A stretch of 51,338 bases of DNA from Planctomycetaceae bacterium (GTDB lineage Bacteria; Planctomycetota; Planctomycetia; Planctomycetales; Planctomycetaceae). The DNA is taken from contig JBDNFT010000660.1 in assembly GCA_041689695.1 (NCBI GenBank), positions 1-51,338 on the forward strand, given 5' to 3'. A program made the translations under genes and the position numbers. Below, piece after piece: positions 1,027-22,370 of this stretch; position 1 is the stretch's first letter, and each line of letters begins with the position of its first letter. The notes under the pieces are model-generated. The model saw only the letters and a list, made by a program, of their open reading frames with translations. It was not told the origin of the DNA and searched no databases.

Positions 1027-4000
1027 TTATTCGCCTGACTTGTACAAAGACTTTATTCGAGAGCGTCCCGCTGCGACCTCCGGTTTTAGTCGGAACGTGT
1101 TGTCTTTGCCTTTTTCAACAAGGCTCTTGTTCGCTGCCTTGTATGCCTCGTTGTAGATCCTGATCGCATCTGCAACGTTCGGGATTATTTCCGGAACCAG
1201 CGAGCGTGACACCATGCGGCCTTTGTCCTCGCTGCCTGAAAATTCCCTTTTCTCATGCGGCTTCTTTTCGCCCATGACTCGCCCTGAGGCATTCAGGACG
1301 ATGTCATACATTTCCTTTTGAATCGCGTCCGAAAGTTCCGGCGAGTCCTCGCCGTCAATCACTTTCTGCAACCCTGCCTGTTCGTCAGGAAGCGCGGTCC
1401 TCAGCTTTTCCGTCGCCTCGGCGGCCGCCGCGTACTCAAGGTGTTTCAAGAGAACCTGCTGGATCTTTTCTTTTTGGCCCTGATGCTTCAGAACTCGCAC
1501 TTCATTCGCCGCGTCGCTGCGTTTGTTCGTCCTGGCCTCATACGTTCGTGCGCTGAGCCCAAAGAACATCATCATTGAAAGAACTGATCCTAACTCAACT
1601 CCCTCTTCTTCGATCGCCTTGCGGACGTCCTGTCCAATGAGAGGCGTGATGCGTTTAAGTAACCATTTCCGGGTTGCGACATCTTCGCCCATCATTGTTT
1701 CTCTTACAGCAAGGTCCACAACGGCAGATGTAGCTGGCGCGAGTTTTCCTCTAAAGTAGCGGCCAAATACTCCAAGCCGGTCTATGTCCCTAGTTTCCCA
1801 TCGGTCTTTTTGCTGTCCGCTTATCATTCTTATGAGAAATGATAAATGCTGCCCCAGTCCTGCGGTCATGTCGATATGTGAATTCCCGATTCGAATGCTT
1901 CCGAAGTTCAGGCTTCTCCAGTCGGTTTCGTGGTCCCATTCTTCATCATCGCCGGGGGGGCCAAAAGCTGCAGTCAGACCAGCAACAACGAAGCTCATGA
2001 CTGCCATCTGTGCGGCGGCTTGCTTGCCCCACTCTTTAGCAGCCAGTCGCCGCACTGCCCATGATGCGCCTTCGCCGCGAAACCACGTTGAATTGTGCCA
2101 AACCGGCTGGCCTGACCACCATTGCAGTCTACTCATCCACCAGCGAGGCGAGAATAAGACCGCCGTCGCAGCTTCAAGGGCATTCATGTATCTCCCGAGA
2201 CTCCCCCGTCCGCTGCCGACATTCACTATATTTGCGATAATCCGAAGCTCGGCATTCGAGATAGACAAGCCTTCGCCTTCGCGCGATGTTGCAAACTTGC
2301 TGACAAGTTCGCGGAAGACAAGACGCCGTTGCGTATTGATGAACGCAGAACCTGCTCTTTCAGCGCCACCAACACCCCATAGATTATTGAACCACTCTGT
2401 CTGGTCAAGATTCCCCTCTTCACTTTTCATTCCATCGCCAATGCTTGTAACCGCCAGCTTGGCAATCTTTTCCATCCGAACCCATTGCGGGTCGGAATTC
2501 AATTCAGCCTCCGTGTCGAATACGTCTTGTTCGCTCGGGAAGATGCTTTTTGCTTTAAGTGGATTGGACGCAAACGCCTTTTGTGCCGCTTTTGCGTACA
2601 GAATCGGATGCGTGATTCCAAGCAAGTATCCCTGACGCCCGATCAGTGACTGGTCGATGGTCGTCAATCCCTTGCGCCACATGTTAAGAGCGGCAATTGG
2701 CCCTTTTACCAGTAATTTGTAAACGGCGTTCCGGTTCTTGAATATCCATGCCTTGCGTGTCTTCGACATCCTGTTCTGCATGTCGTCGATTTGCTTCATC
2801 TCGATCAGCATGGTTTTAGTCAGAGTTCTCTCTGGCTTCTTTGCGGCCGGCATGACGTCGCCATCAGCCAGGCGGCGAGTAAGTTCTGCCAATCGTTTCG
2901 TTAGCGTCCTCTCGTAGGCTGCGTCAGAACGAACCTGAGCTTCTCCTGAATTTAATCGCAGTTCTTCACGGCTTGCCTTCAGTGCATCCAGCGTCGCCCG
3001 CTTGGCTTCGATTGCTGGCGATGTGACACGCGGCTTTGGATCGTCCTTGTACAGTTTGCCTGCATCGTTGTCCGCTTCCATCTGGGTGATGGCACGGTCC
3101 AGCGCCTTCTCCGCGAGATTCAGTCGCTGCTCGTCGCTGAGTTCGTTTTTCCCGAACGCGGCGTTGTAACGCTTTTGGAGAGCATCACGATCTTCTCGCA
3201 GTTTGGTGAGCTCAGCGTCTGTCTTGAGGGTAGTTTTGCTGCCGATGATTTTCGTTCGTGTCTTTATCGCGTTATCAAGATCCGCGATTCTATTCCTTAC
3301 GCCAGTCTTCGCCGCGTCGAGTGCGGATTTAAGCTGGCCTTCGGTTTGCGTTGATATCCCTGACGCTTTCTTGGCAGCAGTGACATTCCTGCGAATCAGT
3401 CTTTGCTCATCACTGGACGGCGCTCGCTCTTGTCCTGTAGCCAGTGGCGGTTTCCCTGTTCCCGGCTCATTTGCTTCGTCGATTGCTGCCTGCTCCCATC
3501 CCTTGAGTTGCTCCAGCAGGAGAAGCTGTGCTTTCTGGTCGCGTCGAATAACGTCGATTTCATCCTCTGAGAGTTCAGAGTAGATGCCGATTCCGGACAT
3601 GGCTCTAGCTGTCTCTTCGATGGTGATGTCAGGGAGAAAACGCATCAGAATCTCATGGACAGCATCAACTGCCGCTTCACGTCCGGCCGCTGAAGCGTCG
3701 AGACTGTCGCGTTCAATGACGTATGCGTGAAGATCCCTCGCCGCCTTACCGATAGTGTCCGGAACGACGCTGTCGATTTTGTCGGTAATTCTGCTGATGT
3801 TGGCCGGGCCCCTCGCTGCAAATGCCGTATCCCATGCTTCCTGCAAAACAGGGATGTTCTCAGGGTTTGGCTTCTTCCCAAAATGCTTTGATAATCTATC
3901 AACGAAGGTACTGAAGCTCTCGACGCCTTTTTCGATATGTGCCCCAGCGAGTTCAATGAACTCGGGAAGCATTTTAGCAGCGCCTTCTATAGAGAAAAAC

Positions 4001-7000
4001 GTGTTGGCTTTCTGGAACGGCTTCCAGGCTTCGGCAAGGCGTTTATCTGCGGCCGTTTGAACGCTTTTCGGCGATGCTGGCTTTTTCGCAGTCGTCTTTG
4101 CAACCGCTGCGTCATGTGCTTTTTTGAGTTCGTCCTGAAGCTCAGTGCTTTTAGATTCCTCTTCGGCCAGCAGCTTTTCGAGGTCTTTAACCTTTGCTGC
4201 CAATTCATCAACGTCACTCTTCATTGCCTCCAGTTCTTTGCTGTTCGCCTTTCGTTTGTGGGCGGCTTCAAACAGAAGAACAGAACGTGCAAGCGAGTAG
4301 TCCCGTTCGATAACAGCTTTTCGGGCTTGCAGGTTCCGTCCTGCATCTGTCCCGCTCGTTTCCATCACATAAATCAGGGTTTCGGCTTCAATCCTCTTTA
4401 GTGAGGCTTCTCTTTCGTGAATCGCTTCTTTGACATCGTCGCCACTATTCGCAGCATCGATCTGGCCGCGTAATTCATCTTCGAGCATGTTGCTGAGTTC
4501 AGCGTTACGGAAGTTCAGTAGGTCGTTTTCCAGAGTAGTCGCGGATCTGGGGCTATCAACCAGCTCGCGAATCAGCTTATCGATTCGAACTCGACCATAT
4601 TCAGTTTTACCGATCTCCGCAGCCAGCTTCACGCTTTCCGCTCGACCCTGTTTGATTACAGGATCGCGTTCCGGCATACCGAGTTCAACGCGACGTTGAG
4701 CACTGAAGGCGTTCTTCGTGGAGAACTGCTTTTCCTGATCATCATCCTCTTCGTCTACGGCCGGCGGCAATTCATCTTTCATCGCGGCATCGAAACTGGC
4801 GTCGGTGCCTTCGTCTTCAAGACTAAACTCGTCTCCAAAGAAGTTCCATGTGTCGATCAGGTTCGCCCGGATCGAATTGACCGATGCGTCACCAAGACTT
4901 GCACGCAGTTCCTTTATCATCGCCTCGAACGTTTTGACACCCAGCTTGATTGTGCCGATCATTCGTTTCGCAACAGCGCGTGCAAGCTCGTCAGAAATCG
5001 GCAAGCCGGAACCAGCCGTCGGCTTTCGGAGTTCGGCCAAGATGATCGCGTTTTGCTTTGCGTTCTCTGCTTTTTGAGCATCGACCGCTTCTTTTGCTTC
5101 ACGGGCAGACTTCCGCAGCTCGGACTCGACTGGCGTTTCGACTGGCTCTGAATCTGCTTCCGTCGCAGGGTCCGGCGTCGCTGCAGGCGGTGTTGCTGTC
5201 GGGTTATCTCGCTGGAACATCATCTGGTTAACTTGAGCCAGTTGCGATTCCAGATTATCAAGCTCGATCTGTGTCTCAGATGGCTTGGCGAGAAACTCTG
5301 TGAGCTTCACATTCTCGGCTGTGCCCGACGCAATTGTTTTCTTTCTTAATGTAATTTGGCGTCGCAGGTCTGAGGATAGTGCCAATATGATGTCAACCAG
5401 CGAAGAGAACTTCGTTTCTTTGGTCTTATCAATCTGTTTGCCGTCCATCGTAATGACAGTGCCGGACGATGCTGTCCACTTTACAGAAGGGTTCCCTTTG
5501 TCGTCCTGCACGACTTTAGGACGCTCGCCGTAGTACAGATTGAATTGCACAGAACCATAATCAGCATCAGTGGCATAGTGATCAGATTCAGGGAATCCTG
5601 AAAACGCTTTAATCTTGCTATCCCGAGTCGCTATGCTGATCCTTTCACTTTCAGCATTAAACTTTTCTTTCAGCGACTTGTCAGCCTCAGCAATTGTGGC
5701 CAACTTCTTGCCGTCAACAATTATTGGGCCATCAGAATTGAAAGACACTTCAAGTTTATCTGCCAGCGCGGCTTGGCTCACATTGGTTGCATTAGCTCGT
5801 TCAATGTCATATTCACTGCCGCGAAGTCTGAACCGTTCTCGCGATCGTTGCTGATCCAGCGCCTCTGCTTCAAGACGCAATGAACGAATCTGGAATTCCA
5901 GTTCGCGTTGACGGTAGAACATTGGATCATCATTCATGGCCGCTTCCATGTCGGCCATTGACATCAGCGACTCGCTATACGGATCGTCAAATTCAGCGCC
6001 TGCTTTACCTGACAGTGCTTGTTCTGACGCTTTCGCCTTGCGTAGATTCATAGACATCAACGTGCCGTCGAGCGAGCGTTGCATCGCCATCACGAACGCC
6101 TGCACCGTCTCATTCAGGTTTCCTGACCTGATCATTCTCCCAAGGCGCTGTTCACGCTTTGACGGAACCATCGGAATATCGAGTTCCCAAATGGCTTTCA
6201 GTCGCTGCTGAACATTAATTCCGGTTCCGAGAGTGTCAGAATGCCCGATGACAATTCGAACCTCACCAGCGTTGACGCTGTCCTGAAACGCAAGTAGTTT
6301 TTCTGGCGTGCCGTTATGGTCATTGATTATCTGGACCTGATCCTTTGGGACGCCTTTCTCAATCAGCTTGCGTTTGATCTCGTTGTATAACCAACGGTCT
6401 TTCTTCTTTGTCGTCTTCACGGCTGCAACTGGAGTGTCGCCATCCGAATCGCTGTCTGAGTCATCATCTGAATCGTCGTCGGAATCGTCGCTCTCATCAA
6501 TTTCGAGCGTGACACCTTCACCGCGGGCAAAGTCTCTCAGCTTGGAAATATCTGTCCGGCCCGATGTGTCCGAAAAGATTAACTGCGTCAGGTTCTGCCC
6601 TGTCAACTCCTGATCGCCAACCTTCAGTGTTACGCCAGTGCCATCCTTGTAGTTCTGGTAAACGCCTTCAACCATTTTGTTGAGCTTGCTGCCAGGATCA
6701 TCAGGCGCAGAAGCATCCACCAGACGCACGTCGATGGCAGCGGCTTTCGCAGCACCATAAATCGTCACAGGAACCCATGAGTACGTTCGTTTGTCTTCAC
6801 CCTGCAGCCCTTTGTAGGCATCGTACAGATCAATGAAAAACTTTCCAAAATCATCGAACGCTGCGGACCTATCGACCATCACCAGAGTTTCTTTGCCGCC
6901 CTCCATCGTGGGGACTTTACCGCCGCCGTACTCTCTAATCTTGCCGTGCAACTCATCGCCAAGCAGAATATCCCATCCGGACTGAATGAACTGCGCAAGC

Positions 7001-10000
7001 TGGTGGCCGTTCTTAAACTTTGCCAATCGTGTTTTTCGCTGCAGTTTTCCGGCAGAGTTTTGTTCAAGCGAACTCATGACTTTTGCGAATGTCGCTACGA
7101 ACTGATCGAACGTCGTTACTCCAAATTCTTTAACGACGTCAGGAGCAACCATGTTCATCAGAAGCCACGATTCACCGAGCGTGTTTGTGATCGGTGTTCC
7201 CGTCGCCATGAATGTATTGCGGCCCTTATTGCCGTTCTGAATAAATCGCATTTTGATCAGCGCCGACAATGCCCGTCCAGAGACGTCGGTTGACAGACCT
7301 TTGATGGATCGATCGAGCTTCGTGACGAATGGCGGTTTCTTATAGTCGTGTGCCTCATCCAGAAACAAGGAATCGACTCCCATCTGCTCGAAGTACACGT
7401 CACTGTCCGTTCTCGCATTGACGCTTTTTATGATTTTATCCAATCGCTTTACGAGGGATTTGATCTGCTGCTGAATAGCCTTGACTGATGGTGATCCAGC
7501 CCCGTCTTCCAGTTGAGCTTCAAGCATTACGGCTTCGAGTTCTGCGATCAAACCTTCAACCATCTCCTGCTCAAGCGCTGGGTCATTCGGTAGTTTCATG
7601 TTGAACGTTGATTTCGCCATCACGATCGCGTCCCAGTTTCCAGTCGCGATGCGAGCCATGAACTTTGCGCGGTTTTCTGGATTCAGATCGTTTTTGCCTG
7701 CAACCAGCACTTTGGCAGCCGGGTACACTTCCGTGAACGTCCTCGCGAATTGACCGAGCGTTGAGTTCTGCACGACAATCAAAGGCTTCGTTGTTGTTCC
7801 CAGTCGCTTCATCTCCATGGCGATCGCGATCAACTCAGCCGTCTTTCCAGCGCCTACGCCGTGCGCGATCATGCCACGTCCTTCACGGATTGCCCGCCAG
7901 ATCGTGTTCTTCTGGTAAGGCCGCATTCGCTTGAGCCACAAATCAGACATCCCCGGAAACGTCAGGTGTTCTCCGTTGTATTGTGGTTTGACGTAGAAGT
8001 TCTTTTGCTCGTTGAACGCCTGTTCGATCAGGGGTATGGTCTCTTCGTTAGACTTAGACCACGCTTGAAATGAATCACGCATTTTTTCAGCTTTGATCTG
8101 CGCTGCCTGCGTTTGAGCCTCATCAGGAACTCTTTTCTTATGGTCGTTTGGGTCCGCCTTCGTAACACGGATCGTCGAGCCGTTCAGCGTCTTTGGAAGC
8201 AAGTCGGATAAGTGCATCCCAAGCGTGCCCCATTCGTTCTGAACATCCCGTGGAATACCCTCTGTGCGAACGCTCCAGATATCCACTTTGGCGTTATATC
8301 TGGCTGTTGAACCGTCCAGTTTCAGAACATCCGTTAACCAACGATTCACTACTTCAATGGGAACCCATGCCTGACCAAGACTCGGTGTGATTGAGTCGAT
8401 CGTCATCTTCGGTGGCTGAACCATCTTCAAGAGTTCGACATTCCGTTCAAACCTGCTGTCCCCCTCGGCTACCGACCGTTCTGCCGTTCTTAGTTTCGCC
8501 TGCACGTTTCCAGAAAGATAAGTGTCTGCTGGTTCCAGGAGACTCGTTTCGGGATCAAGTAAGACAGTACCGGAGTCCAGTAACTCGGCTTCAAGATCCT
8601 CTTCAGATGTTCCAGTCAGTTTGGACATCCACGGAAGATTAATTGCACCTCGCCAGGCCAAACTCATTTTGATAGCGTCTTCAGTTGTGTCGGCCGTCGT
8701 TGGAGCTGCGTCCGGGTTGACTGTTCTCTCTCTGAACACGTCAGCCTTGACATACCCCTTCGACAGAACACCGTTCTCAATGATTTCAACATCGTTTTCA
8801 ATGCCAGACGTGAAGAAGAAACCCGGATCGCGATGAAGCCAGTGGCTGTCTTTGTGATTCAGGGCACCGTGCGCCAGCCTGTAGGCATCGTAGGCGACAT
8901 TGAGCGCCTTCTGTGACTGTTTGTACTCATCCTGCGTTGCGTTATCGTTACGCATGTTTGCCAGATGAATCTCATAGGCATTTCGAACCTTCGTATAGGA
9001 AATCCCCTGCCTCATGGCGTTCGCGATTTTATCCGCCTTGGTGTCATCTTTCAGCTTTCGCGGCTTTCCATCCTTCGTCAGCAGCACGGCGTCTTTCAGC
9101 CATGACGGGGATACCCACTCGCCTTTGGATAACTCCTGAAGTTTTCCGCCGCGAAACTCGATCCTGCCCTCAACACCACTTGTCCCTGTGTCGAGTGATG
9201 GCATCAGCGGAGCGTTGTCTACTGTTGCTATGCCGGCAGGAAGATTCTTGACAGCCTTCTGAAGTTGATCGGCGAGGCTTGCGCCCTCAACTGGCATCAC
9301 CGTGTATTCCGTATCAGAATACTGCTTGCCCTCCATGGAGTGTGTGCCTATCACCATTTCAGGATGCGCGGCGAAATACTCATTGACCGTGATGTTTCCC
9401 TCTTTATCAACAAACGGTCCATTCTTCGTTTTCTTGGCTTTGTACGTGTACGTCCCGACGGACGAAAGATTCTGCCATGACGCACCCTTGAACGAGGAAC
9501 CGTCAGGCTTGCGGAAGAACATGATGTCTGTCGTCACTTCAGTGCCAGCGTTTGCCTTGAACGCAGTGTTTGGAAGTCGAATCGCCCCAACCAAATCCGC
9601 CTTGCTCGCCAACAGCGCCCGGTCTTCAGGATTCGCATCCATCGTGAAGTGAGTTGAGATTACTGCCGCCAGTCCACCTGGACGTAGTGAGTCCAGCATT
9701 CTCGCAATGAAATAGTTGTGGAGGTTCATCTCGCGGCCGTAGCGAGTCTTTGCGTCTGCCGGCCCGATCTGGTGGAAAGGCACGTTCGTCGCAGCAATGT
9801 CGATGGTTCCCGCTGGGATTGGAACTTCCTCGAACCCCTTCACATGAACATCAGCATCTGGATACAACTGTTTGACCATCTCACCAGTCAACGAATCGAG
9901 TTCGATCGCAATTACTTCAGAGTTGTTGGAAATACTCTCTGGCATCAACCCGATCAGACTACCGATACCGGCAGACGGCTCCATGAACCTACCGCCAGTG

Positions 10001-13000
10001 ACGCCCATTTGTTCAAGAGCGCCCCAGATTCCGTTGGTGATGACGTCGCGGCTGGTGAAGTGTGCATTGAGAACACTGGCCTTTGCTTTCTTCCACTCGT
10101 TCGGCGTTAAAGTCTCTTTCAAGAACCGATACGATTCGCCCCATTGTTTTTCCCATGCCTCAACACGGTTCCGAATTTCAATGATTGTCGAGTATTCGCC
10201 CTTCTTTTGGTACATCCGGGCTTTTTTGTACCACTCGTCATATTGATCCAGAAGTCCTGGACGCTCAATGAATTCCTTGCCCTTGTTCTCGTCGAACACA
10301 TGCTGAAGTGATCCCCAGCCTGTGTACCGCATCAGAACTTGTTGCTCCGCCGCTGTGGCTTGCCGATTGTCTTTCTGAATTTCCTTCAGGAGTGTGATGG
10401 CTGCGATGTTGGCCTTCAGTTTCGTAATGAGCCCATTTGGCGCAATCGTATCGCCGGGCTGGATCTTCAGGTTTCGCGGACCTGCCATTGTTCCCGAAAC
10501 TGTCTTAGCTGGCTTTCGGCTTCCTCGGTTAGAGGGTTTTCGTCCGGGCTTTGGTTTTGCTCCAGAACTCTGCTCTGTGCCAGTTCCCTCAGTGCTAGTT
10601 CCGGTTCCTTCGGATTCTGTTTCCGAAGTGCTGTCAGTTCCTCCAGGTAGCGAATCGCTGTTTGGTCTAGTTCCTGCTTCAGCTTCCCCGTCTTTAGAAG
10701 TGCTTCCAGCTTCCGGGGCCAGTGTTGTTCCAGATTCTCCAGACTCTCCGCCCATGCCCTCGTCTGATGAGGCTTCACCTTGGTCGCTTGTTCCATCGGT
10801 AGATACCTTTCTTGAAGTGAGTACGTCAGCCACGCTTCCTGCGTCATCGATTCCGGAATACTCCGGCAACCGCTTTAACGTCCGCCATGCCAGCTCGATT
10901 CCTTCTGCAGCATTCAGCGTGATCTCGTTTCCAAACTTATTCACCACAAACGCAACAAACTCGTCGAACTTCGCCACGCCATGATCCAGCGCAGCCTTTA
11001 CCAGTCGCGCGGAGGCTCGCATCTGTTCGCGAGTAAGACCCATTGGTGCTGTAAAGCCAAACGCCTTTCCAAAGTCGTCAGCGGCATCGTCCAGCTCTTT
11101 CTTAGTCTGCTCTGATCGCGACTTTGCTTCGTCCTTTTTCCTCTGAGATCTTGCCCCCGGCGATTCAATCATGTCGATTGCCCCGGATGGCTTTGGAGTC
11201 TTTGGTTTCCGCGTCTTTGCTTTACCCTTATTTTTTGGAGTCAACTGTTCTACCAAAAGATCAATGGCGTCTTTGTGGTTCGATGGCCTCACGTCTTCTG
11301 CTGGAAACCACTTACTGTTGACAAGAATTCCACGGCTGATCTGTATGCCCTGAACAGTCCCGGTTTCGCCACTGGAAATAATCTGAACCTTGTCGTCTAG
11401 GTTTAGGGCTGTCGCCTTTGGCTCCTGCGCTGGCTTTTGGCCAAGCAGTTCCTCGCGAAGCATTTGCTCCATAAGATCCTCTTGAGATGGTTCAGGCTCG
11501 CTCGCCTTAGCCTTGTTCTCCTGATCAATCTCAGATTGTGCCCTTGCCACTGCCGCTGGCTTGTGGAATTCGACCTGTTCTTCCAGATCTTTAATCCTCG
11601 CCATGTGATCTCTGTCGCCAGCCTTGTGTTTTGGATCGCGGTAGAGTGGCTGCAGTTCGCCGTAAAGCCTGTCGTGCTCAATAGCCGATGGCTTTTCTGC
11701 CTTGGCCTTTTGTTCAACAACCGGAAACGGCTCTGTTTTAGGCTCAGGCTTCGATTTTCCTGCCTTCGGTGGAACCGGCTTGCCGTCCTTGATCGGGATC
11801 TGAGAAACAAGGTACTTCGCCGGAAGAACGCCTGGCGATTTGGTGACGTCATCATGCTGGCGATATTCGCTGGCAGGTATGTCAAAGACGTTTGCGACAC
11901 CGGCCCTGTATCTCGGATCGTCCGTTTCCATTCCGGACTCATCGTCCACCACTCGCGCCGTACTCTGCAGCATCCCCTGTTTGGCGTAATTCAACCCGTT
12001 GTCGCGGATGCCTTTGGTCATTTCCTTAGACGAGACGTGAACTACACGAACCACGCCCTCTGGCTTTGGCGTCCATGTTTGTGCAGGCTTTGTTTTGGGT
12101 TCCGGCGTCCGCTCGAATCCGGAGACGTCTGTCCCGGAAAGCACGCTTCCATCGGCGTCGAACCGCACGCTGATGGTTCCCGAATTCTCGCTGATCCCAT
12201 CCAACACGCCTGTCCGACCAGTCACGGCCTGCGTCAAGCGGTCGCCAACATTGAATCCGCCGTCCTTGATGGACTGTTTGCGTTTCTCCGCGTCCGCTTC
12301 TCTTCGCTTCTCTAAACGCAGATCCGGCGATTCGATGACATCTGCTGTTCCTTGTGCTGGTGTTTGATCGCTCTTTGATATCGCGTATTCGTATTCTGCT
12401 TTTGTCAACACCCTTCCATTGCCGTCCGCGTCGTCCATTGAATACGACTTGATTTTCGGTGGATTGGCAATGATCTCACGGTATTCCTTGGCTTTGATTG
12501 CATCCGGGTGGTTTTCGTTTGCTGAGATACCCCACTTTTGCTTTCGCAAAGAGCCTAATTGCCGTGTAGCCTTATTGACCGCTGCTGTATCATCGTCTTC
12601 TGAGACAACAGGCTTTCGCCCTTCTGTGAGTTGGCGGTCTACTAGATCGCGACGAGTGATAACTTCACTCTTTCCTCCGACTGACCCTGTATAGTTCACC
12701 TTCTGATCGAGTGTCTTTTTGAACCTTGCTGCTTTGCTCGCCTCTTGAAGTGTCAACTTTGGCTTTGCTGCGTCTGCTTCGGCCTTGTCGGCATCAGCCT
12801 TATCGAATCCAGCCTTTCTTGCAATTTCATCTTCGTACTGTTGTTTGATCTTCGGGGATTCTTCTCTTGCTTGCTGCTCGGTATCAAACAGCATATCGCC
12901 ACCGCCTCGCGGCTGATCAGAACTTCGCACAGCAAACTTTTGGCCGCTACGCATATTTGCGATATAAACTTGGCCAACTTCTGTTGGAAGCTCTGACGTA

Positions 13001-15342
13001 AGTGGTGGAGTAGCCTGATCTGCCGGAGCGATTGCGTCTGGAGAAGAAAAGACTACGTTCCCGTCTGTTGACTTGCTTTCTGCCCAATCGCCCACTGCTG
13101 CCGAAGTGCTCTCGTCATCAACTGCCGGTATTTCAGGCTTCACCAACGGCTTCAGGATGCTTGGAACAACCGCTGGCTGCTCGCCGAACAGGTATTCCTC
13201 CATTGAATCCTTGGTCGCCTTTGACATCTTGCCAGGCTTCTCGCCACGGAATATGGTGGCGTTGAAATCGTCGCCTCGTGATTCCGCTTCCTTAAGTGCA
13301 TTTGACTGCAGCCAAGTCTCCGCACGCCGAAAAGTCATGCGAAGAGTCATGCCTGTCTTGCCTTCGGTTCCAGTGCTGACCTTCGGGAAAGGGGTTGTTG
13401 GTCGCCCTGAAGACGTTTGCACGACTTCATCCGATGACAGCATGTCGCCGACAACGCCGCGACGTGGCGTGTCTGCAGTGGCTTCTGGCGATGTCGCATC
13501 CTCCTGCGGAGCGATTGCGTCTGGAGAAGCAACCTGCCCCATGGCGGAATCCACCATGGGAGCAGCAGCGTCGGTCTTTAATACCCCGACTTCGGGGTCT
13601 TGGGTGGCGACTTCGGGTTCTTGGGCGACTTCGTCCCCTTCGGGTGCTTCGGTGAGCTTTTCATTTTGAGCTTTCAATCGGTTAAAGATTCTATCCTCTA
13701 CATCATCAGGCACATTGCCTGACATGTCTTCTTGCGGAGCAGGCGCTGGATCGAGCTCAGGCTTTCGCATTCCCAACGGATCGGGGTTGTTCAGGTTGTC
13801 TGCAAGTTTCTGACGATTCGCACGGTTCGGGTTGTCAACTGGCGGCATTCCATCGGCAATAGCAGCGTCGTAGTTTTGTTTAGATGGCTTCTTGATGAAC
13901 GCATCCACTGCTGGTCGAACAGGCGTGGTGGACGTATCTGGCGAGTCTGTTGCTCCTTGCTGCTCGTCTCGACGTCGCAGCATTTCATCGATCGGGATTT
14001 GCTGGATTTCACCGTCGTCTGATTTCTGCTGATCTTCTGGGAGGACAGGCAGTCGCTGATTACCACTTGACGCCAAACGTCCTACCTGTCGAGCGCCTTC
14101 CATCGTCCCCATCATTAACATCGTTTGCAAGACAGTGTCTTTCAGCACTGCTTTGTAATCGACATCCTGGTTCAGCATTTTCTCAGTTGCATAGCCGTGC
14201 AGGACTTCCGTCAATACCTCTTCAACCAATTCGGCGGACGTGTCTTTAGCCAGCGACTTGGCACCACTGGCCAATGCTTTCATGGATGCCGGGCTAGATG
14301 CGATCTTGTTCGCAATCGCCTGTCTCATCACACGACTTTCAATACCGCCAAGCCCTGGGATCTTGCTCATTATCGGCATGATGGATGCTTCAATTCCTCC
14401 CTGAATTGCTGCATACCTTGTCAACTCATCGCCGGCGAGTCCAGCTTCTTTACCTTCGTACTCCGCTCGGCTGTATTCCTGGCTCCCGAACTGGCCAGCC
14501 ATTACGGCCATACCAACAGCCGGAGTGCCAATCATTGACGCTGCAATGCCGGGCAACATTTGTGCTACGTTTTCTGCAACTCCTGCAAAAGCCTTGGAAA
14601 TTTCAGGATGTGCATATTTTTCGTCGCGGTGTTGAGCCATTTCAGACTCAGCGCCGGCCGCTTGTGCCTCAGCTTGGTCAGCAGCCTGTGTTGCCACGTC
14701 GCCATAGCCCAGTTTTTTAACGAGAGGCGAAGCCATTCGGGAGAATGGAGCAACAAAGCCAAGCGTTGATCGCTCCATGAACGCTCGCGTTTCTTTGCCG
14801 AGGTTCGATGGCTCTTTGCGAATGTTTTCGCGTCCCTTATCGAATGACGCCTGTCGTTGTTCTTGCTCTGTCCGTGCCTGCTCAGCAGCTTTGGTGGAAT
14901 CAACGCCTTCGGAGATCAGTTCTTCCGTGCGAGTGCGTGCAAGTGCTCGTTGCCTGAGGGGACTGGAAGCAACGGCGTTCTCGAATTCCATCCGCGCGGG
15001 GATGTCTGCGATTGCTTCGTCGATAGGTTTTTCGATGCCGTCAACTTTTACGGTTGACGGAGCAGGCTTCTGTTTTTCAAACTGCGGCCCCTTCCTCAGA
15101 AGCTCTTTCCGGTTTTGTCTCCCCTCAACAGATCCAGGATCTTCACCCTTCGAAGCATCTTGCTGTTTTGCTTCGTTGATCAGAGCGTTTTTTCGTTTGT
15201 CGATTTCGTCTTGGTACTTCTGCTGCTGTTCCTTTCGCGCAGCATTTTGACGCGCAGACTCTTCAGCATCTTTTATTGCTTTTTGTCTCTGGATTTCTTC
15301 TGCTGTCGTAATTGGACCGTATCGTTGATACCCATCAGCCAT
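1027..15342 (-). CDS. giant polyvalent virion/ejection-type protein with DNA N6-adenine methyltransferase and SF2 helicase core (DarB-like)
   Basis: Uninterrupted 4,771-codon ORF. Its ATG at 15342 lies 1 nt from the stop of the upstream gene. Motifs: EPSAGIGSL (aa 1788), NVPF (aa 1853), GVGAGKT (aa 2495), DEAH (aa 2662), QRLGRMIRSG (aa 3065). Both termini are hydrophobic. Confidence 0.9.
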   Translation of the reverse strand: MADGYQRYGPITTAEEIQRQKAIKDAEESARQNAARKEQQQKYQDEIDKRKNALINEAKQQDASKGEDPGSVEGRQNRKELLRKGPQFEKQKPAPSTVKVDGIEKPIDEAIADIPARMEFENAVASSPLRQRALARTRTEELISEGVDSTKAAEQARTEQEQRQASFDKGRENIRKEPSNLGKETRAFMERSTLGFVAPFSRMASPLVKKLGYGDVATQAADQAEAQAAGAESEMAQHRDEKYAHPEISKAFAGVAENVAQMLPGIAASMIGTPAVGMAVMAGQFGSQEYSRAEYEGKEAGLAGDELTRYAAIQGGIEASIMPIMSKIPGLGGIESRVMRQAIANKIASSPASMKALASGAKSLAKDTSAELVEEVLTEVLHGYATEKMLNQDVDYKAVLKDTVLQTMLMMGTMEGARQVGRLASSGNQRLPVLPEDQQKSDDGEIQQIPIDEMLRRRDEQQGATDSPDTSTTPVRPAVDAFIKKPSKQNYDAAIADGMPPVDNPNRANRQKLADNLNNPDPLGMRKPELDPAPAPQEDMSGNVPDDVEDRIFNRLKAQNEKLTEAPEGDEVAQEPEVATQDPEVGVLKTDAAAPMVDSAMGQVASPDAIAPQEDATSPEATADTPRRGVVGDMLSSDEVVQTSSGRPTTPFPKVSTGTEGKTGMTLRMTFRRAETWLQSNALKEAESRGDDFNATIFRGEKPGKMSKATKDSMEEYLFGEQPAVVPSILKPLVKPEIPAVDDESTSAAVGDWAESKSTDGNVVFSSPDAIAPADQATPPLTSELPTEVGQVYIANMRSGQKFAVRSSDQPRGGGDMLFDTEQQAREESPKIKQQYEDEIARKAGFDKADADKAEADAAKPKLTLQEASKAARFKKTLDQKVNYTGSVGGKSEVITRRDLVDRQLTEGRKPVVSEDDDTAAVNKATRQLGSLRKQKWGISANENHPDAIKAKEYREIIANPPKIKSYSMDDADGNGRVLTKAEYEYAISKSDQTPAQGTADVIESPDLRLEKRREADAEKRKQSIKDGGFNVGDRLTQAVTGRTGVLDGISENSGTISVRFDADGSVLSGTDVSGFERTPEPKTKPAQTWTPKPEGVVRVVHVSSKEMTKGIRDNGLNYAKQGMLQSTARVVDDESGMETDDPRYRAGVANVFDIPASEYRQHDDVTKSPGVLPAKYLVSQIPIKDGKPVPPKAGKSKPEPKTEPFPVVEQKAKAEKPSAIEHDRLYGELQPLYRDPKHKAGDRDHMARIKDLEEQVEFHKPAAVARAQSEIDQENKAKASEPEPSQEDLMEQMLREELLGQKPAQEPKATALNLDDKVQIISSGETGTVQGIQISRGILVNSKWFPAEDVRPSNHKDAIDLLVEQLTPKNKGKAKTRKPKTPKPSGAIDMIESPGARSQRKKDEAKSRSEQTKKELDDAADDFGKAFGFTAPMGLTREQMRASARLVKAALDHGVAKFDEFVAFVVNKFGNEITLNAAEGIELAWRTLKRLPEYSGIDDAGSVADVLTSRKVSTDGTSDQGEASSDEGMGGESGESGTTLAPEAGSTSKDGEAEAGTRPNSDSLPGGTDSTSETESEGTGTSTEGTGTEQSSGAKPKPGRKPSNRGSRKPAKTVSGTMAGPRNLKIQPGDTIAPNGLITKLKANIAAITLLKEIQKDNRQATAAEQQVLMRYTGWGSLQHVFDENKGKEFIERPGLLDQYDEWYKKARMYQKKGEYSTIIEIRNRVEAWEKQWGESYRFLKETLTPNEWKKAKASVLNAHFTSRDVITNGIWGALEQMGVTGGRFMEPSAGIGSLIGLMPESISNNSEVIAIELDSLTGEMVKQLYPDADVHVKGFEEVPIPAGTIDIAATNVPFHQIGPADAKTRYGREMNLHNYFIARMLDSLRPGGLAAVISTHFTMDANPEDRALLASKADLVGAIRLPNTAFKANAGTEVTTDIMFFRKPDGSSFKGASWQNLSSVGTYTYKAKKTKNGPFVDKEGNITVNEYFAAHPEMVIGTHSMEGKQYSDTEYTVMPVEGASLADQLQKAVKNLPAGIATVDNAPLMPSLDTGTSGVEGRIEFRGGKLQELSKGEWVSPSWLKDAVLLTKDGKPRKLKDDTKADKIANAMRQGISYTKVRNAYEIHLANMRNDNATQDEYKQSQKALNVAYDAYRLAHGALNHKDSHWLHRDPGFFFTSGIENDVEIIENGVLSKGYVKADVFRERTVNPDAAPTTADTTEDAIKMSLAWRGAINLPWMSKLTGTSEEDLEAELLDSGTVLLDPETSLLEPADTYLSGNVQAKLRTAERSVAEGDSRFERNVELLKMVQPPKMTIDSITPSLGQAWVPIEVVNRWLTDVLKLDGSTARYNAKVDIWSVRTEGIPRDVQNEWGTLGMHLSDLLPKTLNGSTIRVTKADPNDHKKRVPDEAQTQAAQIKAEKMRDSFQAWSKSNEETIPLIEQAFNEQKNFYVKPQYNGEHLTFPGMSDLWLKRMRPYQKNTIWRAIREGRGMIAHGVGAGKTAELIAIAMEMKRLGTTTKPLIVVQNSTLGQFARTFTEVYPAAKVLVAGKNDLNPENRAKFMARIATGNWDAIVMAKSTFNMKLPNDPALEQEMVEGLIAELEAVMLEAQLEDGAGSPSVKAIQQQIKSLVKRLDKIIKSVNARTDSDVYFEQMGVDSLFLDEAHDYKKPPFVTKLDRSIKGLSTDVSGRALSALIKMRFIQNGNKGRNTFMATGTPITNTLGESWLLMNMVAPDVVKEFGVTTFDQFVATFAKVMSSLEQNSAGKLQRKTRLAKFKNGHQLAQFIQSGWDILLGDELHGKIREYGGGKVPTMEGGKETLVMVDRSAAFDDFGKFFIDLYDAYKGLQGEDKRTYSWVPVTIYGAAKAAAIDVRLVDASAPDDPGSKLNKMVEGVYQNYKDGTGVTLKVGDQELTGQNLTQLIFSDTSGRTDISKLRDFARGEGVTLEIDESDDSDDDSDDDSDSDSDGDTPVAAVKTTKKKDRWLYNEIKRKLIEKGVPKDQVQIINDHNGTPEKLLAFQDSVNAGEVRIVIGHSDTLGTGINVQQRLKAIWELDIPMVPSKREQRLGRMIRSGNLNETVQAFVMAMQRSLDGTLMSMNLRKAKASEQALSGKAGAEFDDPYSESLMSMADMEAAMNDDPMFYRQRELEFQIRSLRLEAEALDQQRSRERFRLRGSEYDIERANATNVSQAALADKLEVSFNSDGPIIVDGKKLATIAEADKSLKEKFNAESERISIATRDSKIKAFSGFPESDHYATDADYGSVQFNLYYGERPKVVQDDKGNPSVKWTASSGTVITMDGKQIDKTKETKFSSLVDIILALSSDLRRQITLRKKTIASGTAENVKLTEFLAKPSETQIELDNLESQLAQVNQMMFQRDNPTATPPAATPDPATEADSEPVETPVESELRKSAREAKEAVDAQKAENAKQNAIILAELRKPTAGSGLPISDELARAVAKRMIGTIKLGVKTFEAMIKELRASLGDASVNSIRANLIDTWNFFGDEFSLEDEGTDASFDAAMKDELPPAVDEEDDDQEKQFSTKNAFSAQRRVELGMPERDPVIKQGRAESVKLAAEIGKTEYGRVRIDKLIRELVDSPRSATTLENDLLNFRNAELSNMLEDELRGQIDAANSGDDVKEAIHEREASLKRIEAETLIYVMETSGTDAGRNLQARKAVIERDYSLARSVLLFEAAHKRKANSKELEAMKSDVDELAAKVKDLEKLLAEEESKSTELQDELKKAHDAAVAKTTAKKPASPKSVQTAADKRLAEAWKPFQKANTFFSIEGAAKMLPEFIELAGAHIEKGVESFSTFVDRLSKHFGKKPNPENIPVLQEAWDTAFAARGPANISRITDKIDSVVPDTIGKAARDLHAYVIERDSLDASAAGREAAVDAVHEILMRFLPDITIEETARAMSGIGIYSELSEDEIDVIRRDQKAQLLLLEQLKGWEQAAIDEANEPGTGKPPLATGQERAPSSDEQRLIRRNVTAAKKASGISTQTEGQLKSALDAAKTGVRNRIADLDNAIKTRTKIIGSKTTLKTDAELTKLREDRDALQKRYNAAFGKNELSDEQRLNLAEKALDRAITQMEADNDAGKLYKDDPKPRVTSPAIEAKRATLDALKASREELRLNSGEAQVRSDAAYERTLTKRLAELTRRLADGDVMPAAKKPERTLTKTMLIEMKQIDDMQNRMSKTRKAWIFKNRNAVYKLLVKGPIAALNMWRKGLTTIDQSLIGRQGYLLGITHPILYAKAAQKAFASNPLKAKSIFPSEQDVFDTEAELNSDPQWVRMEKIAKLAVTSIGDGMKSEEGNLDQTEWFNNLWGVGGAERAGSAFINTQRRLVFRELVSKFATSREGEGLSISNAELRIIANIVNVGSGRGSLGRYMNALEAATAVLFSPRWWMSRLQWWSGQPVWHNSTWFRGEGASWAVRRLAAKEWGKQAAAQMAVMSFVVAGLTAAFGPPGDDEEWDHETDWRSLNFGSIRIGNSHIDMTAGLGQHLSFLIRMISGQQKDRWETRDIDRLGVFGRYFRGKLAPATSAVVDLAVRETMMGEDVATRKWLLKRITPLIGQDVRKAIEEEGVELGSVLSMMMFFGLSARTYEARTNKRSDAANEVRVLKHQGQKEKIQQVLLKHLEYAAAAEATEKLRTALPDEQAGLQKVIDGEDSPELSDAIQKEMYDIVLNASGRVMGEKKPHEKREFSGSEDKGRMVSRSLVPEIIPNVADAIRIYNEAYKAANKSLVEKGKDNTFRLKPEVAAGRSRIKSLYKSGE
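1483..2745 (-). other. Trp-rich hydrophobic C-terminal module of the giant ORF (approx aa 4200-4620)
   Basis: WWMSRLQWWSGQPVWHNSTWF and a TM-like AAQMAVMSFVVAGLTAAFG. No named family recognised. Confidence 0.4.
6010..7940 (-). other. SF2 (SNF2/DEAD-like) helicase domain of the giant ORF (approx aa 2470-3110)
   Basis: Walker A GVGAGKT at 7840-7860, DEAH at 7348-7359, motif VI QRLGRMIRSG near 6121-6150. An acidic D/S insert separates the two lobes. Confidence 0.8.
9340..10400 (-). other. N6-adenine DNA methyltransferase domain of the giant ORF (approx aa 1650-2000)
   Basis: AdoMet-binding motif I EPSAGIGSL is encoded at 9955-9981. Catalytic motif IV NVPF (an NPPY/F variant) is at 9775-9786. 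Confidence 0.8.
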
Positions 15343-15343
15343 T

Positions 15344-17128
15344 TCAATTACCTATCTTGTACCCAGCTTTTTTAAGAATCTCTTCTGCTTCAGCAAGATC
15401 AGGATCACTGGTGTCTTTTGTCATAACAGAATTGATCACGATATCCGCCGCCATCCGCACAGTCTGATCCATTGTCGATGTTGAGCTGTGCTTCTCTCGC
15501 AGTGCCTGCAACTGCTTTCCGCCGGGAAGACCGCTCAGCGTTTTACCAACTTCTGCTGGCAATGGCGACCTCGCAGACAATACAGGTGGTTTCGCCGATG
15601 CTTGTCCCGCTGGCATTTGCTGTGGCGCTATTTGCCATTGCTCATTGCCTCGTGGATCAATCGGGCCTTGCGGCTGAAAAGGCTGTTGCTGTGGTTGTTG
15701 CTGTTGCTGCTTCAGCTTCTCTCGGTCTATTTCCTGTTGATACAGTTTTTGTGGCGGAAGACCTTCTTCCTCTCGGAAGTAATGTTCATGTGGGGCAAAT
15801 TCGTCCATTGCCGCTTTGTCGAGATCATCCGTGTTTTTGTAAACAGGCTCGCCGGTTTCAGGGTCCGTCTTTGCTCCAAGCTTGTCCCGTAATTTCTGCA
15901 TGGCGATCTCTCTGTCGAGTGCCCCTTTTCGCTGTTTCGAAGCGAGCTCCTGTGTTGTCGGAGCCGCCTTCCCCTGGCCGGAAGAGAGTGGCTCATATGT
16001 CCGGAATCCTCGCGAATCAAGGCTGACGATAAACTCGGCTCCAGTTTTTTTGTGCGTTACCAATGATCCGTCAAAGCCATCCTGCGAACTCTGAACCCTT
16101 TCATTGGGGATAATCGCCGAGAGTTTTCTCTGATGCTCCAGCATTGCTTGCTGCTTCAGCCCTTCGTCAAACGGGCCATTCATCACGTTTTTCTGAAACG
16201 ACTCATCCAGCGTTTTCATTTCTTTCTGTTGTGACTCGCTGAAATCCATTCCAGCGTTGCGGGCCTGCTGAATCTGTTCGTTCCATCGCTCAGACACGCC
16301 GAACGTTTCCCTCTGGGTCGCGTTCTGCTGCGTGTATCCTTGCTGTATTTCGTCGCGCTGTGTTTGCTGACCGAACTGTTGCTGATCGCGCTGAGTTGAA
16401 TACCCGAACTGCGAGGCATCGCGTTGCAGAAGATCCTGCTGCTGTTGCTGATCGCGCTGCGTTTGGTATCCGAACTGCTGTTGATCGCGCTGCGTTGAAT
16501 ACCCGAACTGCGAGGCATCGCGTTGCAACTGATCTTGCTGTTGTGCTCGATCGCGCTGAGTTTGGTATCCGAACTGCTGCTGATCGCGTTGCGTTTGGTA
16601 TCCGAACTGCTGCTGATCGCGTTGCAACTGATCTTGCTGCTGTGCTCGATCGCGCTGCGTCGAATATCCGAATTGCGAGGCATCACGCCTCAGCAGATCT
16701 TTTTGCTGCTGCTGATCGCGTTGAGTTTGCTGTCCGAACTGTTGTGCTGAAGCGTCCGCAGCAATGCCGGCACGCTGGTTCGTGTTCTGTTGTCCGTACA
16801 ATTGCTGCTGTTGATCACGCCTTGCAGTTGCCGCTTGCTGCTGTGCGGCGAGGGCGGATTCAATACCACCTTTTTGTTTGACGAGACTTTTTTGGGTAAT
16901 GTCTTCACGGTTTTTATTAAGGACCGCGATGTATCTGTTTTGGGCCTCTCGATATCTCTCCTCCTCTAATCTCCGTTTTTCCAGTTCGTCTTGTTCTGCT
17001 TGCGTACCCCCCTGACTGCGGCCAAATGATGGCGCTCGATTGTACGTGTCTGTTCCATACGGATGACGAGATTTGTATTGGACCATGAGAACGACGCCTG
17101 TACTGAGTGTTAGAAGACCGGGACGCAA
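15344..17128 (-). CDS. Gln-rich tandem-repeat protein, putative internal virion/ejection protein
   Basis: TTG start per ORF track (alternative ATG at 17086). About 10 QQFGYQTQRD-type units span aa 129-277. It lies between the tail genes and the giant ORF. Confidence 0.7.
   Translation of the reverse strand: MRPGLLTLSTGVVLMVQYKSRHPYGTDTYNRAPSFGRSQGGTQAEQDELEKRRLEEERYREAQNRYIAVLNKNREDITQKSLVKQKGGIESALAAQQQAATARRDQQQQLYGQQNTNQRAGIAADASAQQFGQQTQRDQQQQKDLLRRDASQFGYSTQRDRAQQQDQLQRDQQQFGYQTQRDQQQFGYQTQRDRAQQQDQLQRDASQFGYSTQRDQQQFGYQTQRDQQQQQDLLQRDASQFGYSTQRDQQQFGQQTQRDEIQQGYTQQNATQRETFGVSERWNEQIQQARNAGMDFSESQQKEMKTLDESFQKNVMNGPFDEGLKQQAMLEHQRKLSAIIPNERVQSSQDGFDGSLVTHKKTGAEFIVSLDSRGFRTYEPLSSGQGKAAPTTQELASKQRKGALDREIAMQKLRDKLGAKTDPETGEPVYKNTDDLDKAAMDEFAPHEHYFREEEGLPPQKLYQQEIDREKLKQQQQQPQQQPFQPQGPIDPRGNEQWQIAPQQMPAGQASAKPPVLSARSPLPAEVGKTLSGLPGGKQLQALREKHSSTSTMDQTVRMAADIVINSVMTKDTSDPDLAEAEEILKKAGYKIGN
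16298..16744 (-). repeat. in-frame tandem repeats (33-66 nt units) encoding QFGYQTQRD(Q/R)... motifs
   Basis: The plus strand shows a repeated ggtatccgaactgctgctgatcgcg(c/t)tgcg. Confidence 0.85.
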
Positions 17129-17159
17129 TCGCGATTGGCTTCGTTACTGATTTCTGTTA

Positions 17160-18206: not shown

Positions 18207-18228
18207 TTGCGTGTATCCTTGCCTTGAG

Positions 18229-18675
18229 TCAATAACGAATAACTACTGCTCGCCAAAATCGCACATCACTGCCGCCAACGTTTGCTGTCGCTACCCTGAT
18301 GGTAACCGTATTATCAGCAGACACGTATCCTGACCATGAAATAATACCAGTGGCTGGGGCTTCAACTGGAGATACGATCACATTGTCTCCAGATAGTGCC
18401 CCGGTCACAGTTATCGTAAGGTTTTGAACAGTGCCATTCCTGGCGAATGACAAACTTGCTGTTCCTTTCCCTGAAAAAACTGACAACCCAGTTTCGTCCT
18501 GCGTCAATCCACCAGTGGATTTCAGTCGTAAGACCAGTCGCCCGTCGCTATCAATCGTGATTCCGGTGTCGAGAACAAGAAGCCCTGGCGTTGATAATGC
18601 GCCAAGGGCTCTTCGTGTTCGAAGAGTCGCTTCTGGATCGTTTATGATTTTTCCCAAACCGACTGACAGGCTCAT
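18229..18675 (-). CDS. virion structural protein (hypothetical)
   Basis: ATGA overlap with the upstream gene stop (18672-18675). Beta-rich sequence within the tail module. Confidence 0.6.
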   Translation of the reverse strand: MSLSVGLGKIINDPEATLRTRRALGALSTPGLLVLDTGITIDSDGRLVLRLKSTGGLTQDETGLSVFSGKGTASLSFARNGTVQNLTITVTGALSGDNVIVSPVEAPATGIISWSGYVSADNTVTIRVATANVGGSDVRFWRAVVIRY

Positions 18676-20555: not shown

Positions 20556-20556
20556 T

Positions 20557-21456: not shown

Positions 21457-21494
21457 AAGATTTCTCCTTGTGTGCTACGTCGTGATGTCATTTA

Positions 21495-22358: not shown

Positions 22359-22370
22359 GATGATTCTCCT

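Follow-up and report, generated by a model that had tools for sequence, protein, structure and literature searches.

DarB of the myovirus P1 (2,255 amino acids, aa), the experimentally characterised archetype of its kind, resides inside the phage head and guards incoming DNA in cis against type I restriction, as set out in the passages on DarB in Iyer, Burroughs, Anand, de Souza and Aravind (2017; PMC5512222), and for packaging it requires Hdf, DarA, DdrA and Ulx (Piya 2017, as cited in PMC9144972). The passages of the former paper on polyvalent proteins, which unite several unrelated domains in one injected polypeptide, place the module of a SWI2/SNF2 ATPase, an adenine methyltransferase and LPD36 among the commonest polyvalent modules. 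Giant DarB-like proteins, below called the Bcep22-type giants, are encoded by podophages of the Bcep22 kind and their relatives (Bcep22 gp75, 4,602 aa; JC1 gp69, 4,515 aa; PEp14 gp27, 4,914 aa; Gervaise gp28; SopranoGao gp06; PHROG 10089), and JC1 gp69 was found in purified virions by mass spectrometry (PMC9144972); the database record of another giant, gp60 of phage H66 (3,787 aa), likewise notes virion detection by mass spectrometry. Here we analysed a contig of 51,338 nucleotides (nt) deposited under Planctomycetaceae bacterium (JBDNFT010000660.1, assembly GCA_041689695.1), the whole of which is called the window below. Its minus strand carries an open reading frame (ORF) of 4,771 aa that joins several unrelated domains in the manner of the polyvalent proteins and rather probably encodes an ejected, membrane-anchored anti-restriction virion protein. 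A giant DarB-like protein in a late virion module has already been described; what is new is its different, abundant and uncharacterised carrier.

1027..15342, minus strand: giant ORF, 4,771 aa, ATG start, no cysteine (Cys), from the ORF list and its translation.

Translation of this ORF gave a stop codon at the end only, in agreement with the preliminary description of the window (which had omitted the strand), and the chance of 4,771 stop-free codons at the base composition of the window was ~1e-89. In three metagenomic contigs the frame was found open over >4,000 codons with 49-60% aa identity. These were the 52.5-kilobase (kb) ENA scaffold L051, with ~53% identity to the giant protein over aa 1439-4767 and a two-gene split that is only apparent and corresponds to a run of N, the 63-kb contig L057, with a frame open for at least 4,401 aa and 60% identity in the core, and the representative P0023 (4,737 aa), which is colinear with the giant protein from the N-domain to the C-terminus. 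Since three independent contigs keep a colinear open frame, an assembly artefact can be excluded. The composition of the protein also bore out what had been read by eye: Gly and Ala make up 32% of aa 201-300, hydrophobic segments lie at aa 262-283 and aa 4441-4464, giving one transmembrane (TM)-like helix near each end, a low-complexity linker rich in Ser, Thr, Gly and Glu occupies aa 1501-1600, and 10 Trp fall within aa 4401-4500 of the hydrophobic C-terminal module. The 1-nt gap to the preceding Gln-rich gene was confirmed as well, as that 594-aa ORF ends GGT AAT TGA and is followed by a single A and the ATG of the giant ORF.

10063..10425, minus strand: LPD36-type helical domain (aa ~1640-1760), GxG[GAS] motif present as GWGS at 1675-1678.
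9163..10065, minus strand: gamma-class N6-adenine DNA methyltransferase, EcoKI/TaqI-like (aa ~1760-2060), with FTS at 1762-1764, EPSAGIGSL at 1788 and NVPF at 1853.
6013..7935, minus strand: ATPase of superfamily 2 (SF2), SWI2/SNF2 type (aa ~2470-3110), with GVGAGKT at 2495 (K2500), DEAH at 2662 and QRLGRMIRSG at 3065.
5143..6015, minus strand: post-helicase extension of the DarB-like core (aa ~3110-3400), included in a PHROG 10089 match that runs to aa 3425.

To judge from its motifs and profile matches, the core at aa ~1640-3210 is a complete DarB-type triad of LPD36, an EcoKI/TaqI-like N6-adenine methyltransferase and a SWI2/SNF2 ATPase. The five motifs cited in the preliminary description, namely EPSAGIGSL and the four that follow it above, all stand at the residues it had given, and both folds on which its reading hinged have profile support. 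The PHROG 10089 profile ('DarB-like antirestriction') matched aa 1728-3425 with 1195 bits, covering profile positions 1633-3253 of 4647 only, which is the core. For the ATPase, Pfam gave SNF2-rel_dom at 32.1 bits (cut-off 24.9) and ResIII at 23.6 (cut-off 22.5), a PDB sequence search returned SNF2 matches only, to ISWI, INO80 and DDM1-type ATPases, and the only NCBIfam match on the giant protein was that of the helicase lobe to the PLD anti-phage model. For the methyltransferase, motifs X (F-T-x), I (ExxxGxG) and IV (N-[PV]-P-[FY]) are all present, and a profile from the 8-sequence alignment A4, which includes P1 DarB, matched in the PDB BsaXI (2.5e-10), EcoKI HsdM (2.6e-10) and TaqI (3.4e-4), and also StySJI HsdM, CamA and BseCI. 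Weak matches were obtained to phrog_3820 and to Pfam N6_Mtase (E = 0.009), and on these scores the domain is too divergent for Pfam detection. The part of PMC5512222 on these enzymes assigns DarB to the same EcoKI/TaqI-like gamma class and defines LPD36 by the GxG[GAS] motif, of which G1675 and G1677 are invariant in A4. BLAST alignments to PEp14 and Bcep22 extend to aa 3182 and 3207, and the post-helicase extension is also kept in L051, L057, P0023 and P0024. Because all catalytic motifs are intact, the methyltransferase and the ATPase are probably both active.

The DarB-like identity proposed in the preliminary description gained direct support from P1 DarB itself, which in BLASTP matched the methyltransferase region with 32.6% identity over 187 aa (2e-21), NVPF being present in both, and the helicase N-lobe with 22.8% identity over 400 aa (2e-17); the LPD36 GxG[GAS] motif is shared too. 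P1 DarB differs in belonging to a myovirus, in being half the size, in having 9 Cys and in being without the scaffold of N-domain and C-module described below, and no homologs of Hdf, DarA, DdrA and Ulx were seen in the window. As a separate observation, the two SNF2 ATPase lobes are separated by an acidic insert made up of Asp and Ser only (DESDDSDDDSDDDSDSDSDGD; aa 2949-2969, nt 6436-6498, minus strand), for which a DNA mimic and a linker are two possibilities.

The core was further compared by tblastn with 50,697 phage records, the set used in all phage-record searches below. It matched 133 of them, and in 77 of these the match spans 80% or more of the core with ~31% identity. The phages concerned include Burkholderia Bcep22, BcepIL02, BcepMigl, JC1 and CSP3, Erwinia PEp14, Pavtok and Stean, many Ralstonia phages, Klebsiella SopranoGao and LASTA, and Pseudomonas Itty13, and their giant genes encode 4,369-4,914 aa directly after the virion structural genes. 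Since homologous cores occur in these 133 records, a DarB core in a giant late-module protein is already known, and the embedding of a methyltransferase-helicase core that the preliminary description pointed out is by itself nothing unusual: giant DarB-like proteins in this position are annotated in >100 phage records.

The Bcep22-type giants are like the window protein in size and in their position after the virion genes, contain a homologous LPD36/methyltransferase/SNF2 core (~31% identity over ~1,450-1,600 aa), and share with it the lack of Cys, the Cys-free upstream neighbours and a charge-flanked hydrophobic helix 270-350 aa before the C-terminus. They differ outside the shared aa ~1600-3210, where no BLAST or hidden Markov model (HMM) similarity was found in the N- or C-terminal third of the window protein. 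By tblastn, aa 3110-4771 matched no phage record and aa 1-1640 matched only through a 143-aa island, and when the C-module was compared by hhalign with C-termini of the PLxRFG type and of the Bcep22 type, the probabilities were 0.3% and 1.4%, which means no homology. Several Bcep22-type giants are annotated with a lytic transglycosylase, whereas none was found by Pfam in the window protein, and the phage genomes are unrelated to the window, as megablast of the ORF and of its 24-kb neighbourhood against the phage records was empty. The PLxRFG giants ('tail-700', NCBIfam NF032893) of F116/H66-like and PEp14-like phages are also giant virion proteins closing the late module, and the F116/H66-like ones share with the window protein the cargo domain at aa 627-769; the group also has an analogous C-terminal hydrophobic helix followed by an acidic cluster. 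NF032893, a C-terminal domain of ~680 aa, had no match in the window protein at E<=1, with controls at 800 bits (H66 gp60) and 725 bits (PEp14 gp27), and was absent in Bcep22 gp75; the PLxRFG motif is absent from the window protein. Within these two groups of giants, hhalign revealed a ~160-residue domain (probability 95.9%) common to the C-terminal regions of the PLxRFG type (H66, PEp14, SopranoGao) and the Bcep22 type (Bcep22, Gervaise), and this domain sits upstream of differing tails in the C-terminal 1,300-1,400 aa (L001, L003 and L061 vs L002 and L063). In Itty13 (L062, NC_070969.1 1-14910), the core match lies on the strand opposite to three 'hypothetical proteins' of 1,562, 1,153 and 970 aa, and the giant gene may have been annotated on the wrong strand.

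14023..14775, minus strand: scaffold N-domain (aa ~190-440), an all-alpha bundle including the Gly/Ala/Met-rich segment 262-283, common to at least 17 family representatives.
1483..4755, minus strand: scaffold C-module (aa ~3530-4620), a long helical part leading into a Trp-rich helical domain, seen in 45 IMG/VR loci.

The core is embedded between two scaffold parts that define a protein family of their own. An alignment of the N-domain (A3, 13 sequences) has 10 invariant columns (G301, E318, G330, G333, E335, E371, E374, T378, T403 and T407), and its core motif, present in the giant protein, is EAGL...QGGIE...GLGGxE...EExxTE; the C-module carries the motifs IGRQG, NxxNxxSGRG, AKE[WY] and GxxRIG (alignment A1). 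Exhaustive HMMER searches placed 11,178 representative clusters in the C-module family at E<=1e-3 and 6,356 at E<=1e-30, with the module always C-terminal, and 17 further proteins were found in a 90%-clustered database. AF2 predicted mostly helical structures for the N-domain (pLDDT 74) and for aa 4051-4771 (pLDDT 71.7), the N-domain had no Pfam or PHROG match, and Foldseek searches of the PDB returned nothing significant with the two scaffold domains (best E 0.25 and 0.11). In BFVD, the structural neighbours of the C-module (E to 2e-17) were all C-terminal fragments of large proteins from uncultured Caudovirales, and the named ones are annotated as polyvalent ('Large polyvalent protein associated domain'), helicase or 'MuF C-terminal domain'. 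The scaffold family is without a Pfam, PHROG, NCBIfam or PDB counterpart and the carrier was not previously described; the searched passages of PMC5512222 contain no description of an N-domain plus C-module carrier, of Cys depletion or of a membrane-anchor helix.

Family members have a median length of 1,808 aa among the top 144 representatives and typically measure 1,300-2,500 aa. In the short members P0089 (1,476 aa) and P0066 (1,584 aa), a homolog of the N-domain is followed almost directly by a homolog of the C-module, and since these proteins consist of the two parts only, the window protein is, by this comparison of sequences, a ~1,500-aa base protein whose two parts are set apart by ~3,100 aa of inserted cargo. 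A DarB-type core is carried by P0023, P0024, P0020, P0025 and the contigs L051 and L057, a Strawberry-notch-type helicase by P0001, P0021 and P0085, and a PBECR3 nuclease domain by P0002; among the 45 IMG/VR members none has a DarB core (0/45). An iterative HMM search with the N-domain in the 45 IMG/VR proteins reached only L010, and the domain is visible only with the representative set. In L004 6363-12239, the P0001 contig with a 54%-identical C-module, the genes downstream encode a sigma-70 region-4 protein, a ResIII helicase and a Mom-like DNA-modification protein; because of the last, this phage may have a second DNA-modification system.

15344..18675, minus strand: three upstream ORFs (594, 348 and 148 aa), Cys-free, with 0 Cys in 1,090 aa vs 1.2% elsewhere.

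The giant protein contains no Cys in 4,771 residues, against a mean of 1.2% in the other likely genes of the window (P ~4e-26), and base composition alone predicts ~107 TGY codons in the ORF. The scaffold family is largely Cys-free (128/144 top representatives and 33/45 IMG/VR members), the known giants Bcep22 gp75, PEp14 gp27, SopranoGao gp06 and Gervaise gp28 have no Cys either, and H66 gp60 has one. Calibration with phage T7 gave 0/747 for gp15 and 0/1,318 for gp16, ejection proteins that form the channel and are Cys-free like the window protein, and 0.5-2.2% for the other T7 virion proteins. The depletion extends to the neighbours: the genes immediately upstream of the giant gene are Cys-free in Bcep22, PEp14 and H66, and among the IMG/VR loci the three ORFs nearest upstream contain 0.64% Cys and are Cys-free in 49% of cases, compared with 1.35% and 15% further upstream. 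The three ORFs upstream in the window had no Pfam or PHROG match and are candidate co-ejected internal virion proteins. Gln accounts for 18.5% of the 594-aa ORF, in which FGYQTQRDQQQ-type repeats occur in tandem, the 348-aa ORF is likewise rich in Gln and Asn, and the 1-nt gap suggests that the 594-aa ORF is probably translationally coupled to the giant gene. The absence of Cys may reflect selection against disulfides during unfolded passage through the periplasm; no published statement of Cys avoidance as a signature of periplasm passage was found in the ejection-protein papers searched.

1918..2022, minus strand: putative membrane anchor, consisting of the basic patch AKEWGKQ, a helix at aa 4441-4464 and the acidic cluster GPPGDDEEWDHETDW.

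In the giant protein the order of these elements is AKEWGKQ, then AAAQMAVMSFVVAGLTAAF, then GPPGDDEEW. The helix was found in 118/131 family representatives, and in these it is preceded by a basic patch in 101/118 and followed by an acidic cluster in 59/118 (background 12.5%). A like arrangement occurs 180-350 residues from the end in the sequence-unrelated C-termini of Bcep22 gp75, Gervaise gp28, PEp14 gp27, SopranoGao gp06 and H66 gp60, with acidic clusters reading ...DDDKDRW (Bcep22 and Gervaise), ...DDGDDP (PEp14), ...DDGEDP (SopranoGao) and ...EDAEDL (H66), so that the charge-flanked helix is conserved in three unrelated types of C-terminal module. On the positive-inside rule we put forward the hypothesis that the cargo side would face the cytoplasm, leaving the last ~300 residues in the periplasm.

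From these data we infer packaging, ejection, membrane topology, enzymatic activity and an anti-restriction outcome as follows. The giant 'polyvalent' protein would reside inside the virion and be ejected ahead of or with the phage DNA, and it would have two layers, a carrier made of the N-domain and the C-module and ~3,100 aa of cargo with the DarB-type triad. It would be packaged together with the three small Cys-free neighbours and, on infection, would be threaded in a largely unfolded state through the tail channel and across the oxidising periplasm, in which the absence of Cys would prevent disulfide trapping. The helix of the C-module would then lodge in the inner membrane with the cargo side facing the cytoplasm, the ATPase would translocate along the entering genome, and the methyltransferase would act in cis on restriction targets that contain adenine, modifying or shielding them in the way P1 DarB counters type I systems. 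The virion RNA polymerase (vRNAP) of phage N4, gp50 (~3,500 aa), is proposed to work alike, as this giant enzyme is stored in the capsid, threaded through a ~35 Å channel, unfolded and then refolded, and tethered at the inner membrane (PMC13434306). N4 gp50 and T7 gp16 differ from the window protein in having no sequence or fold similarity to it, and the cargo in the window is a methyltransferase-translocase rather than a polymerase or transglycosylase. The preliminary description had spoken of a putative ejection protein, with which the size and late position (as in JC1 gp69, H66 gp60 and Bcep22 gp75), the lack of Cys and the TM-like helix near each end agree, short of proof.

Several points weigh against this reading. 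For the window protein, and for its scaffold family as a whole, the case for presence in virions is an indirect one. Neither scaffold domain resembles solved ejection proteins in sequence or fold, the models reached a pLDDT of only 72-74, and the C-terminal third had no BLAST-level counterpart in the phage records, which leaves the scaffold without a match in any cultured phage. With their high Gly/Ala content and only moderate hydrophobicity (KD 1.5-1.7), the hydrophobic helices could belong to a buried core instead of spanning a membrane. DarB function as such does not call for Cys depletion, given the 9 Cys of P1 DarB. The structural genes are without recognisable homologs in PHROG and Pfam, except for the large terminase, and virion morphology is not readable from the window; the label 'podovirus-type' in the preliminary description finds no support in structural genes of which the terminase alone is recognisable. 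Finally, 32 of the 36 related viral contigs continue with same-strand genes after the family gene.

The same data were weighed against other explanations of the giant gene. In the first, which is compatible with ejection and which we consider unlikely, the protein is chiefly a DNA-import motor: the anchored SWI2/SNF2 translocase would mainly pull the genome into the cytoplasm, in the role that RNA polymerases have for T7 and N4, and methylation would be secondary and co-translocational. The Walker A, DEAH and motif VI sequences of the SNF2-type ATPase are intact, the ATPase lies on the N-side, predicted to be cytoplasmic, of the charge-flanked helix, and RNA polymerases are the downstream motors in the T7 and N4 models, the vRNAP staying membrane-tethered (PMC13434306). 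Other giants with this scaffold carry a different SF2 helicase, Strawberry-notch, which suggests selection for a translocase as such. However, most family members (median length as above) are without a helicase, and for this reason the scaffold must work without a motor; P1 DarB is known to be dispensable on non-restricting hosts (Iida 1987 and Piya 2017, as cited in the relevant part of PMC9144972), and polymerase-independent import has been demonstrated for no DarB-like protein.

It is very unlikely that the scaffold is the tape-measure protein of a long-tailed phage, that is, an ejected ruler of tail length with the enzymes as embedded passengers. The scaffold is indeed long and helical with TM-like segments, the family lengths of 1,300-2,500 aa fit the tape-measure range, the uninformative structural genes make such a morphology compatible, and a few BFVD matches of low probability (0.06-0.11) were to tape-measure proteins. 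On the other hand, no tape-measure Pfam or PHROG family was matched, and by the familiar rule of thumb of ~0.15 nm per residue a protein of 4,771 aa would give a tail of ~700 nm, which is implausible. A strand switch follows the gene in the window, L051, L004 and L005, exonuclease genes do so in L015, and in none of these is it followed by distal-tail, hub or baseplate genes. The ORFs from the terminase to the giant gene matched no sheath, tail-tube or chaperone family in PHROG and Pfam (no search was aimed at the chaperone frameshift), and homologous cores occur in proven podophages.

Equally improbable in our view is a cytoplasmic late enzyme that is not packaged and modifies progeny DNA before packaging, with the termini serving oligomerisation or regulation. 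Orphan phage methyltransferases acting before packaging are, as is well established, common, and this explanation draws on the indirect case for the virion presence of the window protein. Against it stand the 1-nt gap to the preceding late gene, the match in position and size to giants found in virions by mass spectrometry, the Cys depletion, which is as in T7 gp15 and gp16 and unlike the cytoplasmic-type genes of the window, and a scaffold in common with proteins that carry other injected-effector domains, such as PBECR3 (as treated in the domain descriptions of PMC5512222). That the giant ORF consists of genes fused by sequencing errors, or is a decaying pseudogene, is practically negligible, as the chance probability of the frame, its openness in three contigs, the run of N behind the L051 split and the intact catalytic motifs outweigh the C-modules called as two or three genes in L052 and L053. 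In these two contigs (L052 1-5021 and L053 1-4417, of 68.8 and 76.5 kb), the C-module, ~54% identical, lies at a contig end and is divided among two or three consecutive gene calls; these splits could be frameshift errors, true splitting or a permuted genome end.

13036..13464, minus strand: cargo island (aa 627-769), 46-53% identity to giant virion proteins of F116/H66-like Pseudomonas podophages.
12052..12363, minus strand: cargo island (aa 994-1097), conserved in the ortholog P0023, no Pfam match.
10753..11145, minus strand: small helical domain (aa ~1400-1530), found in many family members just before the C-module.
10543..10815, minus strand: low-complexity linker rich in Ser, Thr, Gly and Glu (aa ~1510-1600), from the composition table.

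Outside the core, the preliminary description had suspected hidden effector domains in aa 1-1640 and 3110-4200. No nameable one was found there by Pfam and PDB sequence searches; Pfam with the whole protein and eight segments at E<=5 gave nothing credible outside the core, and these regions are mostly carrier scaffold and linkers. A search of aa 1-1640 in a 5.8-billion-protein database was empty, a result that likely comes from low-complexity filling of the word index (the H66 match was missed) and has no weight as absence. The island at aa 627-769 (143 aa), which matched 26 Pseudomonas phage records in tblastn and is also conserved in P0023 and P0020, is the only match of the N-terminal third to the F116/H66-like giants and resembles a mobile cargo domain. 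The small helical domain has the pattern ...GVxxFxxFVxxxxxxFG...AW. BLAST self-comparison of the giant protein found no internal repeats, and a weak repeat pair was seen between aa 1414-1490 and aa 3766-3840 (nt ~10873-11103 and ~3823-4047, minus strand; z = 4.8, 1/500 shuffles).

The giant gene lies at the end of a minus-strand late block that begins with the large terminase (32916-34931). Searches with the 18 ORFs at 17160-32912 (minus strand) gave one weak PHROG match, to an Ig-like stretch in a 627-aa ORF, and a few sub-threshold Pfam matches, and by these results the virion genes lie very far from those of catalogued phages. Apart from the giant gene, no ORF of the block has the length of a tape measure. 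A final position of the family gene in its strand block was also considered as a general rule and was rejected on the above count of 32/36 loci. Upstream of the terminase, a 228-aa ORF (35198-35884, minus strand) matched several PHROGs of unknown function and is weakly similar to MazG-like nucleotide pyrophosphohydrolase. On the plus strand lie a serine recombinase/invertase-like ORF of 246 aa (38356-39096), a primase/polymerase of 806 aa (40741-43161) and a gene for a DNA-repair protein. The serine recombinase-like ORF hints at a temperate lifestyle, as in Bcep22-like phages. In the region 50307-50794 (plus strand), a CsrA-like ORF (similarity ~50439-50615) lies between tRNA-Phe (50326-50397) and tRNA-Met (50720-50794); in L052 the giant gene is likewise followed by a CsrA gene, and CsrA has been reported as virion-associated in the Bcep22-like phage JC1. 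The window ends have no overlap and hence give no sign of circular completeness. A host search in 185,579 species genomes gave five matches, all contigs of metagenome-assembled genomes, and because their labels are inconsistent (Planctomycetaceae, Chitinophaga, Aquaspirillum), no host was assigned.

Returning to the ejected, membrane-anchored anti-restriction protein, it can be taken together with the import motor in a wider proposal, which we hold only tentatively and which is doubtful as a whole. The N-domain and C-module would be a general protein-delivery chassis of uncultured short-tailed phages into which cargo of up to ~3,100 aa is spliced, the N-domain binding the capsid or conduit and the C-terminus anchoring in the inner membrane. 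The cargo would be DarB-type or Strawberry-notch methyltransferase/helicases, PBECR nucleases and others, the anchored translocase of this phage would double as a motor that draws in the genome during its methylation, the absence of Cys would be a periplasm signature, and the anchor would follow a convergent or very ancient rule.

In some podophages, a fifth to a quarter of the genome is devoted to a giant DarB-like virion protein, and the present protein touches the problem of how a ~500-kDa enzyme is packaged, passes a tail channel of ~35 Å and acts on incoming DNA. Comparing carriers leads to sequence rules for ejected proteins, namely near-total avoidance of Cys and, ~200-350 residues before the C-terminus, a single hydrophobic helix with a basic N-side and an acidic C-side. 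The Cys signature could flag ejection proteins in uncultured phages whose structural genes are unmatched, and the insertion architecture points to a natural chassis for the delivery of large proteins into Gram-negative cells.

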